This document shows positions 8,305 to 54,713 of a DNA stretch of 64,000 nt, piece by piece. The position numbers and the translations under genes were made by a program. How positions within the stretch are numbered: the first letter of the stretch is position 1; every line of letters starts with the position of its first letter. The notes beneath the pieces are model-generated. The model saw nothing but the letters and a program-made list of their open reading frames with translations. It did not search any database and was not told the origin of the DNA. The stretch spans positions 2,919 through 66,918 of the forward strand of contig CANQAY010000007.1 of assembly GCA_947589025.1 (NCBI GenBank). Reading direction: 5' to 3'. The stretch comes from an uncultured Clostridia bacterium. Lineage in GTDB: Bacteria; Bacillota; Clostridia; Christensenellales; UBA1242.

Positions 8305-8868
8305 CTATTTCTTCACAATTACTTGCGAATAGCGTATAACTTTGCCTTTATAGGTGAAGCCTTTATAGGCCTCTTTAACTATATATCCGCTTTCAACATC
8401 GGCGGTGCTATCCGTGTCTATTGCCTGATGCAAATTAGGGTCAAACTTACCGGATGCGTCAATCACATCTACGCCCATTTTAGATAGAGTATCCAAAATG
8501 CCCTTTTCAATGAACTTTATGCCCATAAGCGTGTTTTTATCTGTAATCATGTCCGTTGCCATTTTAAAACTATCTAGGGCTGGCAAGAACTGAGTTATTG
8601 CATCCATAAAGCCATCTTGCCTTGCTTCGCCAAGTGCAGTTTGCATGCGCTTGCGGTAGTTATCAAACTCGGCTTGCAAACGCAAAAGGTCATTTAAATA
8701 ATTTGGCAACTCCACCTCTTCTTCTGGTGGAGGGATTGCCTCTTCTTCCATGTTTAAATCTTCATTAACTTCTTCATTTTCAGTTTCATGTTCAGCTTCG
8801 TTTTCAGGGGTTGGTTCTATTTTGTTTTCTTCTAAATTTTCTTTATTTTCAGTGTGGTGTTTGCTCAC
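8305..8868 (-). CDS. grpE: Nucleotide exchange factor GrpE
   Basis: 187 aa with an acidic N-terminus and then LQAEFDNYRKR.., the GrpE signature. It overlaps the hrcA stop. Confidence 0.9.
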   Translation of the reverse strand: MSKHHTENKENLEENKIEPTPENEAEHETENEEVNEDLNMEEEAIPPPEEEVELPNYLNDLLRLQAEFDNYRKRMQTALGEARQDGFMDAITQFLPALDSFKMATDMITDKNTLMGIKFIEKGILDTLSKMGVDVIDASGKFDPNLHQAIDTDSTADVESGYIVKEAYKGFTYKGKVIRYSQVIVKK

Positions 8869-17156: not shown

Positions 17157-17185
17157 ACCATCCAAAAGGATGAAAGCATTTAGGT

Positions 17186-17530
17186 GGCAGTTTGGCCTAT
17201 AAGCCGGGTTCTGTATTAGACGGTCATCTATCTAAACCATAAATTGCTTTAGGGTTTTAGCGGTGTATGTATTCTGGCGAGCAGCGTTATAACGAATACT
17301 TCTTACCTTGCTTCGGATGGGGTTTGCATGGACCAGATTTGTCACCAAACCTGCGGTGAGCTCTTGCCTCGCCTTTTCATCCTTACTAACCACTCAGGGG
17401 TATAGCGGTTATTTTCTGTTGCACTTTCCTTCTAGTTGCCTAGACTTGCCGTTAGCAAGCATCCTGCTCTGTGAAGCCCGGACTTTCCTCAAATTATTAC
17501 TAACTTGCGACCATCCGTCCAAACTGACAT
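17186..17530 (-). ncRNA. rnpB: RNase P RNA, bacterial type A
   Basis: The minus strand contains GAGGAAAGTCCGGGC, GTAAGGATGAAAAGGCGAGGCAAGAGCTCACC, AGATAGATGACCGTC and ACAGAACCCGGCTTA. P1 pairs cagtttgg with ccaaactg. Promoter TTGACA-17-ATTATA lies just upstream (17536-17570). Ends are approximate. Confidence 0.9.
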
Positions 17531-42002: not shown

Positions 42003-42078
42003 GGACCGCTAGCTCAGTTGGTAGAGCAACTGACTCTTAATCAGTGGGTCCGGGGTTCGAGTCCCCGGCGGTCCACCA
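42003..42078 (+). tRNA. tRNA-Lys(CTT), integration target
   Basis: GGACCGCTAGCTCAGTTGGTAGAGC..ACTGA-CTCTTAA-TCAGT..GGTTCGAGTCC..GCGGTCCACCA. Confidence 0.92.
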
Positions 42079-42089
42079 AACAAAAAACT
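42032..42089 (+). repeat. attL core (58 bp: 3' part of tRNA-Lys plus 11 nt)
   Basis: gactcttaatcagtgggtccggggttcgagtccccggcggtccaccaaacaaaaaact is identical to 54656-54713. Confidence 0.9.
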
Positions 42090-42196: not shown

Positions 42197-43240
42197 TTAT
42201 TTAAATAAATAATATAATTCTCCGTAAAGATTTAAAATCTTTTCTTTTTTTATTGTCCTATCTATAAAAATGTATACTTTTTGTGTTAAATCCACAGTTT
42301 CATGCCCTAACCATGAACTTATTAATTTATCCGGGTTGCCAAGATACCAGTGATTGGTTGTAAAAGTGTGTCTTAATGTGTGTAATTTGCCTTTTATGTT
42401 TAGTGTGTTTAATAATTTCATAAACTGCTTATAAACCTGTCCGCTGCTTAATTTACAAATTTCATTGGCATGTGATTCTATATATTTCGTTGCTGCAGGA
42501 CTCAAATCGATGTATCTATACACCGTTTTATTAAATCTTTTCTTTTCACACTTAATTTTTAACAAATTATTTTCACAATCTAATGCTTTTAACAACTCGT
42601 CTTTTGTTTGCGGTCTCTCATTTTTCCTTACGCCAGTTAGCAGATAAAACATTATTACATGTTCAATAGGTTTTCCCTTTAGGGCCTCAAGTATCCTAAC
42701 TTGTTCATCATATGTAAATGGAGGGTCTATGTTTGATTGTTTTGCGTCTGCAACAAACTCTTCAAACAAATCTTGTTTAATTAGGTTTAAACCCTTAGCC
42801 TTTTTCAACGCGGCCTTAACATAAAGGATAACGAGTTCTTTTGTCCTTGATGGTTTCATTTTGTTAAAAAAGTTTTGTAACATGTCCGTTGTTAAACTAT
42901 TTATATAAATTTTGGCAATTTCGGTGTTGTCGATATGGTTTTTAAAATATCGCTTGATTTCATTTATTGTTCTTGCTTTTATTCGATTGTTGTTTTTATA
43001 GGTATCCGCCCAATAATAACACCAGTCAATAAGCGTATATCTTCTGACCGAGTTAGAAGAAGCATAAATATATTTGTCTTGTTTTAAACGTCTTAGAGCC
43101 GCAATAAGCTCTCTTTGGGTAGGTTTGATAATGGCTTGCCTTACGCCATTGGTCATTTTACGCCATTCCCATCTGCCATCTACTCTTTGTCTAATGTTTT
43201 TCATAATGTCCTTTTCTCCTTTTGATTGAATTAAGGACAT
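42197..43240 (-). CDS. int: Tyrosine recombinase / phage integrase
   Basis: 347 aa. The N-terminal RQRVDGRWEWRK is arm-binding-like. The C-terminal HTLRHTFTTN..WLGHETVDLTQKVY matches box II and the catalytic Tyr. The start may be ATG 43204. Confidence 0.9.
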   Translation of the reverse strand: MSLIQSKGEKDIMKNIRQRVDGRWEWRKMTNGVRQAIIKPTQRELIAALRRLKQDKYIYASSNSVRRYTLIDWCYYWADTYKNNNRIKARTINEIKRYFKNHIDNTEIAKIYINSLTTDMLQNFFNKMKPSRTKELVILYVKAALKKAKGLNLIKQDLFEEFVADAKQSNIDPPFTYDEQVRILEALKGKPIEHVIMFYLLTGVRKNERPQTKDELLKALDCENNLLKIKCEKKRFNKTVYRYIDLSPAATKYIESHANEICKLSSGQVYKQFMKLLNTLNIKGKLHTLRHTFTTNHWYLGNPDKLISSWLGHETVDLTQKVYIFIDRTIKKEKILNLYGELYYLFK

Positions 43241-43405: not shown

Positions 43406-43714
43406 CTAATCCTCCGTTAGGCCGGTAACATAAGCTCGCGTTTTTGCCAATTCAAGCTGATTCATTTTTAAAATCTTTTTAATTAAATAGGCCTCGTTAT
43501 CATCTAAGAACTTTAAATTAATAACTTCAGTTTCGCGGCCAACCAATTCGTCAATGCTCACATTAAAGAAATCTGCTATTTTTATAAGAGTTTCAATGCT
43601 TGGGTCATTTCTGCCGGCCTCATAATAATAAAAAGTTGTTTGTGGCATACCCAGTTTTTTAGCAACTTCACTTTGAGACAAATTTAGTTTTTGTCGCAAT
43701 TCTTTTAACTTCAT
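43406..43714 (-). CDS. XRE-family HTH regulator (paralog 2 of a tandem pair)
   Basis: 102 aa. LRQKLNLSQSEVAKKLGMPQTTFYYYEAG is an HTH_3 motif. The C-terminal domain is shared with the neighbour. Confidence 0.8.
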   Translation of the reverse strand: MKLKELRQKLNLSQSEVAKKLGMPQTTFYYYEAGRNDPSIETLIKIADFFNVSIDELVGRETEVINLKFLDDNEAYLIKKILKMNQLELAKTRAYVTGLTED

Positions 43715-44022
43715 TACTCCTCCAACAATCCTGTAATATAGGCCCGTGTTTTTGACAATTCAAGCTGATTCATTTTTAAAATCTTTTTAATTAAGTAAGC
43801 TTCATTTTCGTCTAAGAACTTAAGATTTACTGTATCGCTATCTCTCCCCACCAATTCATCTAGCGATACATTGTAAAAATCAGCAATCTTAATTAACGCG
43901 TCAATGCTTGGACGGCAGGTGCCTTGTTCATAACTGAATAATGTCGTAATTGGAATTTCTAATTTTTCAGATAATTCCCTTTGTGATATTCCCAATTTTT
44001 GTCTAAATGATTTTAAATTCAT
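43714..44022 (-). CDS. XRE-family HTH regulator (paralog 1, CI-like position)
   Basis: 102 aa, about two-thirds identical by eye to the adjacent ORF. It faces the divergent promoter region. Confidence 0.8.
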   Translation of the reverse strand: MNLKSFRQKLGISQRELSEKLEIPITTLFSYEQGTCRPSIDALIKIADFYNVSLDELVGRDSDTVNLKFLDENEAYLIKKILKMNQLELSKTRAYITGLLEE

Positions 44023-44129
44023 AAAAAACCTCCTTTTGTATTCGACATTTGAATTTTACCACTCTGATGTAAAAAAACAATGAATAATAAAAAAATTTTT
44101 AAAATTTTACAAAATTACCGTAAAATTGC

Positions 44130-44157
44130 TTGACATTTTATGTTGTATTCGTAAAAT
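44130..44157 (+). promoter_or_regulatory. Rightward early promoter of the element
   Basis: TTGACA-16nt-TAAAAT. The TGTATTCG operator-like half-site lies in the spacer. A palindrome atttacatt-gat-aatgtaaat follows at 44167-44187. Confidence 0.55.
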
Positions 44158-44218
44158 TAATTATAAATTTACATTGATAATGTAAATACAACCTCCTTTG
44201 TATTCGACAAACAAAGGA

Positions 44219-44620
44219 ATATGGCGCATTTTTCTCCCATTTCGTGTGCGCCATACATGCCGAGATTGAGCCTAAAGCTTAAAATTGGCTTTTAAAAACT
44301 CCGTGGCGCATGCACCCCTAGTGCGCCATACATGCCGAGATTAAGGGAAGAGCCTTAAAATCGGCTTAGCAATCAATCAATTACAATTTTCCCCTTCCCG
44401 CCAGCAATGGCGGTCATGCCCTTAATGGAAGCAAACGGTCGCGCCGGGCCAAGTTCGAGTCTTGGCGAGGGCTATGTGAACTGCTGCATAAACTTATGGC
44501 CAAAGTTAAAAAGCAGGCGGATGATTGAACGTTGTGGAGCCGGCAAATCACAACGTTCCTGTTGTTGGCTAGGAAAAAGCCTTATGCAGTGCAAATCTGC
44601 AAGCCAGCACTTAGGAGGAG
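44219..44620 (+). ncRNA. Structured non-coding leader / candidate ncRNA with two 75-nt tandem repeat units (class unknown)
   Basis: Two units each consist of a GGCGCA..TGCGCC hairpin, the identical 22-mer GTGCGCCATACATGCCGAGATT (44246, 44321) and an AGCC..GGCT hairpin. A GC-enriched block follows with a 10-bp perfect hairpin gaacgttgtg/cacaacgttc and a T-arm-like gccaag-ttcgagt-cttggc. It has no RBS and its translation is Cys/Arg-rich. Confidence 0.5.
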
Positions 44621-44622
44621 TT

Positions 44623-44889
44623 GTGGAAAAGATAAGATTGCAATCGATTGGTTGGCACAATGCCGTCAAAGCAAAAGAACTTAAGCCTAATGATGTTCTT
44701 ATTTGGAATTTTGGTGGCAGAGAAAAAGTTACCAGTGTATTACCTTCAAAAAATGGCAAAACCTTATCCATTGGCATTCAATATAAAAATTTTGAAGGCA
44801 AAACTGTCAATAGCCGAAGAAGGTTATCGGCCAACACGTTGGTTGCCACAGAAAAAGTTAATTCAACAATCATTAAACCAAAATTATAG
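44623..44889 (+). CDS. Hypothetical protein
   Basis: GTG start 4 nt after AGGAGG. This is the real coding part of track ORF 44407..44889. 88 aa. Confidence 0.55.
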   Translation: MEKIRLQSIGWHNAVKAKELKPNDVLIWNFGGREKVTSVLPSKNGKTLSIGIQYKNFEGKTVNSRRRLSANTLVATEKVNSTIIKPKL

Positions 44890-45329: not shown

Positions 45330-45549
45330 AGATTAAACCACTCTACTCAATGCCAAGACTTTCAAGGCGGGTGCTCGCCTAGCACAGAATTATAATTTGA
45401 ACTTATAACCTGTTACGCTATGAGCCTTTTAGATAGCCACGGGCGGAAGTCATTAACTCCACAGGACTAATCTTTGTGGAAGTATAACACTAAATTTTCG
45501 ACTTGTCAATACAAATTTTAAAAATTTTTACAAAAAAAGGACCATTTTA

Positions 45550-53103: not shown

Positions 53104-53181
53104 AAAATCAAAATAGCAATAAGTGGCAGACACAATATCAGGCAGAATGCCGATTTGTGCTGACACATTGCTTTTGATTTT
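53104..53181. repeat. Long imperfect hairpin (about 78 nt)
   Basis: Outer arms are aaaatcaaaatagcaat / attgcttttgatttt. Inner arms are cagacacaa / ttgtgctg. The apical hairpin is ggca-gaa-tgcc. Confidence 0.6.
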
Positions 53182-53318
53182 AATTTCATTAACAAACGCC
53201 AACTTGTTGGCGTTTCAAAATTGCAAAAAACTTCAAAATTTTCAAACATTCAAAAATTTTGAAAAACAACAAAAAATTAAAAAAATTTTTTAAAAATTCA
53301 AAAAATGGAGGCAAATTT

Positions 53319-54655: not shown

Positions 54656-54713
54656 GACTCTTAATCAGTGGGTCCGGGGTTCGAGTCCCCGGCGGTCCAC
54701 CAAACAAAAAACT
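54656..54713 (+). repeat. attR core (58 bp, displaced 3' part of tRNA-Lys)
   Basis: Identical to 42032-42089. It is followed by actcct-ttaacc-aggagt and a T-run, which looks like the native tRNA terminator (54711-54733). Confidence 0.9.

Follow-up and report, generated by a model that had tools for sequence, protein, structure and literature searches.

The DNA analysed here, referred to as the window, is a 64,000 nt stretch of low-GC sequence (35%) from an uncultured Clostridia bacterium (contig CANQAY010000007.1, positions 2,919 to 66,918 of the forward strand). ARAGORN identified eight tRNAs in the window, and an Rfam scan located the host class A RNase P RNA at 17184-17526 and likewise a tRNA cluster. 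A 58 bp direct repeat (42032-42089 and 54656-54713) that holds the 3′ part of tRNA-Lys(CTT) represents attL and attR, and the insert between its two copies is a 12.6 kb prophage integrated in tRNA-Lys. Genes for a tyrosine integrase (42197-43240) and two tandem XRE repressors (43406-44022) are carried on the minus strand, and the rightward operon encodes small proteins, an HTH_36/phrog_270 replication-initiator-like protein of 344 aa, two DUF6273 proteins and a Zot/pI-type assembly ATPase. Judged from its gene sequences, the element is a Zot-encoding, inovirus-like (filamentous-phage-like) prophage; the Zot protein has only one distant match among deposited phages, the 9.8 kb 'bajarodino virus', and we therefore place the prophage in a poorly known lineage. 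Our subject is the hairpin-dense, GC-enriched block at 44219-44620, which lies between the rightward promoter and the Shine-Dalgarno (SD) sequence and GTG start of an 88 aa gene. We found that this block is a constrained, conserved non-coding element that most likely acts as an RNA, and that the module at 44564-44608 belongs to a previously undescribed, strongly covarying motif family.

The GC content of the block is 0.45–0.53, against 0.30–0.36 in its flanks, and the 220 nt that follow its two repeat units form the GC peak of the prophage (0.53) and the third-highest 200 nt GC peak in the 64 kb. An earlier note on this DNA, made by eye, had listed a promoter, two 75 nt units with a common 22-mer, several hairpins and an SD sequence AGGAGG with a GTG at 44623; all of these were confirmed, each at the position recorded for it. 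A direct repeat of 39 nt with 82% identity occurs at 75 nt spacing, and the exact 22-mer GTGCGCCATACATGCCGAGATT is found at 44246 and 44321, where zero matches would be expected by chance. Tandem Repeats Finder called no tandem array in the block because the units diverge outside the 22-mer. Both units, like the other features of the block, are on the plus strand and contain a hairpin A (GGCGCA/TGCGCC) and a hairpin B (GCCGA..TYGGC), evident in the sequence and in the predicted folds. Unit 1 (44221-44289) comprises A1 at 44221-44254 (ATGGCGCA / TGCGCCAT, with the CU-rich loop UUCUCCC) and B1 at 44259-44289 (GCCGA-GA-TTGAGC / GCTTAA-AA-TTGGC); unit 2 (44304-44365), 75 nt from unit 1, comprises A2 at 44305-44328, with the loop GCACCCC, and B2 at 44334-44365.

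Downstream of the units, sequence and folds agree on a small hairpin, CCGCCA-GCAA-TGGCGG (44398-44413). It is followed by a tRNA-minihelix-like element read from the sequence (44418-44472, preceded by AT), in which a 6 bp stem GCCCTT/GAGGGC and a 24 nt 5′ spacer accompany a stacked 6 bp hairpin at 44448-44466 (GCCAAG-TTCGAGT-CTTGGC) whose 7 nt loop TTCGAGT matches the T-loop of the adjacent host tRNA-Lys exactly. Next come a hairpin found by folding (44481-44516, CTGCT..AACTT-ATGGCCA-AAGTT..AGCAG) and an 11 bp hairpin with a perfect 10 bp inverted repeat (44527-44558, GAACGTTGTGG / TCACAACGTTC, loop AGCCGGCAAA). The last structure is the bulged minihelix module at 44564-44608, with a 7 bp stem GTTGGCT/AGCCAGC, a 14 nt 5′ spacer and a stacked hairpin TGCAG-TGCAAAT-CTGCA (44585-44601) that together give a 12 bp stack; it ends 4 nt 5′ of the SD sequence AGGAGG. 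Folded as RNA and compared with shuffled sequences, the block gave z = -5.1 on the plus strand and z = -3.0 on the minus strand, and in 150 nt windows excess stability was seen in the repeat half only (z -4.6 and -5.6).

An open reading frame (ORF) of 160 aa runs from 44407 across much of this region. A database search with its product returned 88 aa proteins only, aligning to its C-terminal 55%, and a profile search added relatives of 73–91 aa together with two over-extended gene calls of like kind; the 72-codon N-terminal extension is not conserved. Against L015, the sole close relative, the block of the window shows indels of 1, 3 and 2 nt, which break every frame. Since the homologues cover the 88 aa part only and the indels break the frames, we consider the block to be non-coding and the 160 aa ORF an artefact, as the earlier note had suspected. 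The 3′ 200 nt of the block are 90% identical between the window and L015, compared with 79% for the adjacent gene, in which the differences are biased to third codon positions. We also considered the repeats as the source of a leader peptide and rejected this reading, as the frame of the 22-mer differs between the two units and the ORF is not present in L015.

Comparison with L015 shows that several of the stems are kept as the sequence changes. In hairpin B the inner stem covaries across unit 1, unit 2 and L015 (TTGAGC/GCTTAA, TTAAGG/CCTTAA and TTGAGC/GCTCAA), as the outer stem reads GCCGA/TTGGC, GCCGA/TCGGC and GCCAA/TTGGC, respectively. The counterpart of the small hairpin at 44398-44413 is GCCACC-TAAA-TGGTGGC, its stem retained in a changed sequence; the 44418/44472 stem shows a G.U to A-U change; and the hairpin at 44527-44558 shows two compensatory double changes, from G-C to A-U at its base and from G.U to U-A at its top. 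One substitution in L015 breaks an end pair of the hairpin at 44481-44516, which offers no covariation.

To place the block in a wider context we collected contigs encoding homologues of the 88 aa protein and of the repressor. Related elements are present in gut metagenome contigs and in a Candidatus Onthoplasma metagenome-assembled genome, and 62 repressor clusters mark elements of this kind. The collected contigs all have a gap of 600–900 nt between the repressor and the first rightward gene that is occupied by hairpin-dense, GC-enriched leaders of several sequence types. These were designated type B (L001-8 and L025-27/L035-37), type C (L009-14 and L016), type D (L028-30), type E (L038-39), type F (L047-49) and type W, the window type (window and L015). 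In types B, C and E, RNAalifold recovered helices with compensatory changes and many G.U pairs on the plus strand. An nhmmer profile of the type B, C and E leaders did not detect the block in the window, and the leaders are therefore not alignable as wholes. In L027 an 80 aa gene sits between the promoter and the block, and in type F the gene after the block is from another family, so that the block goes with a cistron start and is bound neither to the promoter nor to any single protein.

Two further observations were made on these leaders. The type F leader (L047 2364-2800, minus strand, and L049) alternates three GTGTTGC-stem hairpins with four minihelix modules; the loops of the hairpins are UUCUCC, AUCUCC and ACCCC, and L047 and L049 differ by many compensatory changes. 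Several relatives carry an extra small minus-strand gene encoding 77–113 aa (L003 962-1246, L008 687-971, L016, L025 8279-8512 and L028 8215-8556), flanked by a 16 nt inverted repeat (ACAAATTTATAGTATA / TATACTATAAATTTTTGT) and placed downstream of the promoter-proximal hairpins, ahead of the leader block. The sequence CAATTACAATTTT at 44378-44390 is the lone copy of this flanking repeat in the window.

Every leader type contains at least one copy of a common module, with one to four copies per leader, consisting of a 7 nt 5′ strand, an unpaired spacer of 9–15 nt, a 4–5 bp hairpin with a 5–7 nt loop, 0–1 nt, and a 7 nt 3′ strand. Fifteen copies from types B, C, E and F, with the window and L015 left out, were used to train a covariance model (R2), which was run with filters off. 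It produced one significant match in the 64 kb window, at 44564-44608 on the plus strand (29.2 bits, E 1.5e-4; runner-up 12.8 bits), where the minus strand scored 5 bits. The same model gave 29.1 bits in L015 and matched nothing outside the leaders in 89 kb of the relatives' contigs. Across 20 distinct copies 99.5% of cells were paired and nine of the 11 pairs showed compensatory changes, and the covariation score was 0.80, compared with 0.32 for shuffles (0/500) and at most 0.25 for slid partners. The G.U pairs of the module occur on the plus strand only, and in types W, B, C, E and F the last copy ends 0–6 nt 5′ of the SD sequence of the first gene. The flanks follow the pattern AU|G...C, with U at -1 in 19 of 20 copies, A at -2 in 16 of 20, a G1-C pair in all 20 and a discriminator of A or U; the window module reads UU|G...C-A, having U at -1 and U instead of A at -2.

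This motif family is absent from Rfam and gave no match in the phage or plasmid records searched. The block itself fell below the gathering threshold in every Rfam 15 family, and at E <= 10 its matches were at chance level, the best being Deinococcus_Y_RNA with 16.6 bits against a threshold of 80, a weak match at the 44418-44472 element; six related loci examined at gathering and at E <= 10 likewise gave no Rfam match. ARAGORN identified no tRNA or tmRNA in the block, and RF00005 gave no match there at E <= 10. Phage and plasmid collections, searched with BLAST, contained no match to the block or to the leaders of types B and F, window-type exact and degenerate DNA patterns were not found in IMG/VR and JGI metagenomes (one pattern had four chance matches inside a coding region), and a protein-based scan of JGI metagenomes found no relatives. 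The description of the block as a structured non-coding element of no known class at the head of the early operon thus stands, with conservation and a covarying module added to it. Of the roles proposed for it by the earlier note, that of a large phage non-coding RNA agreed with the data in so far as the block is RNA-like, strand-specific and SD-abutting; identity with ROOL, GOLLD or STAXI RNAs, or a single large fold, did not, and the block looks instead like a leader of small modules. ROOL, GOLLD and ToxI-type repeats are, like the block, structured non-coding sequences borne by prophages and containing tandem repeats, but the block has no covariance-model match to them, differs in size and architecture and has no ToxN-like partner.

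The geometry of the module resembles, as far as can be read from its sequence, the acceptor/T-arm minihelix half of a tRNA: 7 and 5 stacked bp form a 12 bp helix, and the spacer exits at the point from which, in a tRNA, the D and anticodon arms emerge. A G+1-C+72 pair, U at -1 and a 12 bp stack are recognition features of bacterial RNase P minihelix substrates. In the window a stack of about 12 bp with G+1-C+72 and U at -1 is found both at 44564-44608 (7+5 bp) and at 44418-44472 (6+6 bp), and neither module bears a 3′ RCCA tail. N-CCA tails follow the first module copy of types B, C, D and E, as in ACGGAY-A-CCA, AGTGGGC-G-CCA and GCCGGAC-A-CCA; such copies lie at L001 5689-5760, L009 5739-5783, L028 ~8690-8760 and L038 ~1290-1370, and may be small prophage-encoded tRNA-like RNAs. 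The first module of type B also bears an extra long arm. Known tRNA-like signals that mark processing sites within long transcripts, such as mitochondrial tRNA punctuation, MALAT1 mascRNA, plant t-elements and RNase P minihelix substrates, share with the module the acceptor plus T-arm geometry, the 12 bp stack, a 5′ bulge at the site of the D and anticodon arms, G1-C72, U at -1 and a position at cistron boundaries. Unlike tRNAs, the module has no Rfam tRNA or ARAGORN match and no D or anticodon arms, and its loops are only partly T-loop-like.

We suggest that the block is a cis-acting structured 5′ leader RNA of the rightward early operon, with tRNA-minihelix-like (RNase P-type) processing or translation-control modules, a reading to which we give an even chance of being correct. 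The leader would be transcribed from the repressor-controlled promoter and assembled from small modules. A module that mimics a tRNA minihelix would for that reason be a target for an enzyme of tRNA processing. The most plausible candidate is RNase P, which is documented to act on regulatory RNAs of phages and on operon mRNAs (PMC4919922). A cut at the 5′ edge of the module would detach the long leader and leave a 5′ end protected by a stem, thereby fixing where the first early mRNA begins, how stable it is or how well it is translated, and would tune translation of the early operon once the repressor leaves its promoter. The 75 nt units and the other hairpins, with their CU- or C-rich loops, might serve as accessory leader elements that pair with SD sequences or bind protein, which is the part of the scheme with least support. 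The 22-mer is perfect within the element and has approximately seven differences in L015, and its identity in both units fits a specificity determinant. Complementarity of upstream loops to SD sequences was seen in several leader types and was, by estimate, not beyond chance. Loops similar to the CU- and C-rich loops of the units occur in leaders of types B and F, but R3, a model made from the GTGTTGC hairpins of type F, did not detect those of the units. A kinship of hairpin A with the type F hairpins, proposed from the UUCUCC and GCACCCC loops and the covarying stem, was accordingly dropped as a visual likeness unsupported by R3.

More tentatively, a new class of acceptor/T-arm mimics may be arrayed in the early leaders of inovirus-like prophages of uncultured gut Bacillota and cut by host RNase P (for the CCA copies possibly also by other tRNA enzymes), so that the early mRNA is punctuated and matured and small tRNA-like RNAs are set free. 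The capacity of the host for tRNA processing would in that case feed into the switch between lysis and lysogeny or into that of chronic infection. Among the nearest parallels are C4 of P1/P7 and the CI RNA of P4, which are RNase P-matured regulatory RNAs cut from early-operon leaders. Like the block they are encoded by phages within an early- or immunity-operon leader and have a tRNA-acceptor-like stem, which N-CCA follows in the relatives of the block; RNase P maturation, established for them, is proposed here. The block differs from both in having no sequence or covariance-model similarity to them in Rfam, in the types of phage and host (an inovirus-like prophage in an uncultured Bacillota bacterium of low GC content), in the arrangement of its family as arrayed modules of which the last abuts the SD sequence, and in that no complementary a′/b′ or seqA/seqC target sites were identified. 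The put RNAs of HK022 are cis-acting antiterminator stem-loop pairs downstream of early promoters. They resemble the block in being paired stem-loops that closely follow a temperate phage's early promoter, but a terminator search found none inside or after the block and no downstream intrinsic terminators in need of suppression.

The same parallels raise the possibility that the leader acts in trans, as one or more regulatory RNAs cut from it in the manner of C4 or CI RNA. Here the region upstream of the block is relevant. The rightward early promoter (TTGACA at 44130, a 16 nt spacer and TAAAAT at 44152-44157) has 11 of 12 consensus matches, is the top-scoring plus-strand promoter-like site in the whole prophage and has a layout likewise present in L001, L009 and L047. 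It is followed, within 44167-44218, by a promoter-proximal palindrome (44167-44187) and then by CCTCCTTTGTATTCGACAAACAAAGGA, which duplicates the ribosome-binding site (RBS) region of the repressor. A 13 nt exact direct repeat, TTTGTATTCGACA, is present at 44035-44047 and 44197-44209 and extends to CCTCCTTT(T)GTATTCGACA at 44026-44047 and 44190-44209. The first copy lies over the RBS and 5′ untranslated region of the leftward repressor gene and the second approximately 160 nt away in the rightward leader. Equivalent duplicates in L001, L002, L005, L007, L009 and L047 are internally matched and differ in sequence between elements. The segment at 44190-44209 could be one half of an operator pair or a leader segment antisense to the SD region of the repressor.

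For a trans-acting RNA, this copy, or the C- and CU-rich loops UUCUCCC and GCACCCC, would pair with SD regions, for example that of the repressor mRNA. The 13–20 nt duplicate is complementary to the leftward mRNA and is matched within each related element while differing between them, CU-rich loops recur in types B and F, and minihelix modules with RNase P-like flanks could free defined fragments, for which RNase P-processed phage regulatory RNAs provide a precedent (PMC4919922). Such RNAs are possible and compatible with the processing model, but we rate them as quite unlikely: the count of CTCC-type motifs in the window is not significant (by estimate about 1.4 expected and three seen), a DNA operator pair explains the duplicated segment equally well, the leader has no terminator or defined 3′ end, and it has no Rfam C4 match.

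The block could alternatively function in single-stranded DNA (ssDNA), its plus-strand hairpins forming the minus-strand origin of a filamentous phage that is recognised by host RNA polymerase or primase, on the pattern of the Ff intergenic region or of the sso of Gram-positive rolling-circle plasmids. The Zot/pI-type ATPase and the inovirus size and gene layout favour this, because a prophage of this kind would need a minus-strand origin. The structure is specific to the plus strand, and the block folds as ssDNA (plus strand, z = -3.85). The motifs described for sso elements are RSB, TTATGCCGAGAAAATTT, and CS-6, TAGCGT/A in a terminal loop (PMC4598088). The repeat contains ATGCCGAGA, a 9 nt match to the core of RSB, and GCCGAGA is found at the corresponding hairpin of type B leaders. 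Full RSB was not found within three mismatches anywhere in the window, CS-6 (TAGCGW) does not occur between 43867 and 45414, and the RSB-like 9-mer is lost in L015, which has CTGCCAAAA instead. We regard a minus-strand origin as a serious alternative to the leader RNA and yet an unlikely one, given that the last module is locked 0–6 nt from the SD sequence regardless of the gene that follows, that the conserved stems tolerate G.T pairs and that the N-CCA tails on the first modules of types B, C, D and E would be senseless for DNA. Rolling-circle plasmid origins of the ssoA and ssoU types, and likewise the intergenic region of Ff, are, like the block, non-coding, orientation-specific and hairpin-dense, and are needed by replicons that pass through ssDNA, but the block has no plasmid similarity and is SD-coupled.

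Stronger ssDNA hairpins of packaging type are present at 53104-53215, in the gap after the Zot module, where a 78 nt imperfect hairpin (53104-53181) is followed by a 9 bp GC hairpin. Folded as ssDNA this region gave z = -7.7, and in appearance it is close to the packaging signal or intergenic region of a filamentous phage. The comparison with an Ff-type intergenic region, in which a long imperfect packaging hairpin adjoins the origin hairpins in an untranscribed gap behind the morphogenesis genes, fits 53104-53181 better than the block, which lies in a transcribed leader before the first early gene. An origin or packaging role, suggested by the earlier note, is unlikely but conceivable because the element is Zot-encoding and inovirus-like; the absence of RSB and CS-6, the tie between module and SD sequence and the better packaging hairpin speak against it.

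A reading at the level of duplex DNA appears very unlikely. It would treat the repeats as sites for protein binding (iterons, an origin used by the replication initiator, or additional operators), with incidental hairpins. The 22-mer, identical in both units and different at about seven positions in L015, has the pattern of a specificity determinant, the replication-initiator-like gene lies 1.8 kb downstream of the block, and the hairpin at 44527-44558 resembles a nick-site hairpin. The compensatory changes, though, keep pairing and not sequence, and the R2 score of 29 bits on the plus strand against 5 bits on the minus strand is at odds with duplex sites, which are indifferent to strand; there are, moreover, two repeats only, at a 75 nt period unusual for iterons.

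Finally, the earlier note had raised a type III toxin-antitoxin arrangement, in which the repeats are the RNA antitoxin of a downstream 143 aa 'PemK-like' protein. The tandem structured repeats do lie upstream of a small basic protein, and by eye its RPAIVV..VIVPGST recalls MazF/PemK. Searches of Pfam, NCBIfam, PADLOC and the PDB with this protein gave no match, even at E <= 10; a PemK/MazF identity was rejected for want of any family match or ToxN, and the single-sequence AlphaFold2 (AF2) model was unusable (predicted local distance difference test, pLDDT, 40). The 88 aa gene and 250 nt of non-repeat structure intervene between the repeats and the 143 aa gene, no terminator follows the repeats, an unrelated gene replaces the 143 aa gene in L015, where the block is kept, and other leader types lack that gene. 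The arrangement of repeats, terminator and adjacent endoribonuclease gene that defines such systems is thus not found here, and we consider an antitoxin role barely credible.

Several observations weigh against the proposed cis-acting leader RNA. Whole-leader homology between the window and the other types is undetectable, the last module alone being statistically shared, and the window-type leader is known from two sequences only. The window modules lack CCA and are followed by ACUU and UAUG. An initial, too sequence-specific model (R1) gave the window module only 9.2 bits, the alignment behind the covariation score was fitted to the model, the element at 44418-44472 was not significant under R2 (its inner hairpin alone scored, with E 0.21), and hairpin A was not significant under R3 (8.3 bits, E = 7). 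The GC-rich 3′ half of the block showed no excess stability in 150 nt windows (z -1.6 to +1.1). An inovirus packages the mRNA-sense strand, and strand specificity and covariation therefore cannot separate RNA from ssDNA.

To our knowledge almost nothing is known of how filamentous-type phages regulate their genes when the hosts are Gram-positive or uncultured gut bacteria. The motif obtained from this locus is RNA-like, defined and strongly covarying, and it recurs in many prophages; the block belongs to no described RNA family, and one part of it is a member of a motif family that is new, well supported and found in a phage group that has received little study. Should the tRNA-minihelix reading be true, RNase P-dependent phage RNA maturation, so far seen in P1/P7 and P4, would extend to a new group of phages in an arrayed, cistron-linked form, providing a compact processing or translation-control element. 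If the ssDNA reading is true, the block would be the first described minus-strand origin of such phages, as far as we know.

The first early gene, with its SD sequence at 44613-44618 and coding region from the GTG at 44623 to 44889, encodes the 88 aa protein, the homologues of which all begin at the equivalent of this GTG (MEK/MKT..LQSIG). Its AF2 model (pLDDT 89) is an all-beta small barrel, and its matches are weak ones to eIF5A-N/SH3-like domains together with uncharacterised phage proteins. On this fold and these matches we rejected its candidacy as a gene-V-like ssDNA-binding protein. Homologues (P0002-P0020, L017-L024, L031-L033 and L040-L042) also occur beside repressors in siphovirus-like and other phage contigs that have no structured leader. 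The two XRE-type repressor genes of the window (43406-43714 and 43714-44022) are paralogous, encode 102 aa each with approximately 68% identity and have abutting coordinates; relatives have a single such gene with varied partners (DUF3800, 143 aa). Within the 220 nt gap after the 143 aa gene, a strong leftward promoter-like site at 45481-45509 on the minus strand (TTGACA, a 17 nt spacer, TATACT and TG; 11 of 12 matches) is oriented toward the early genes.

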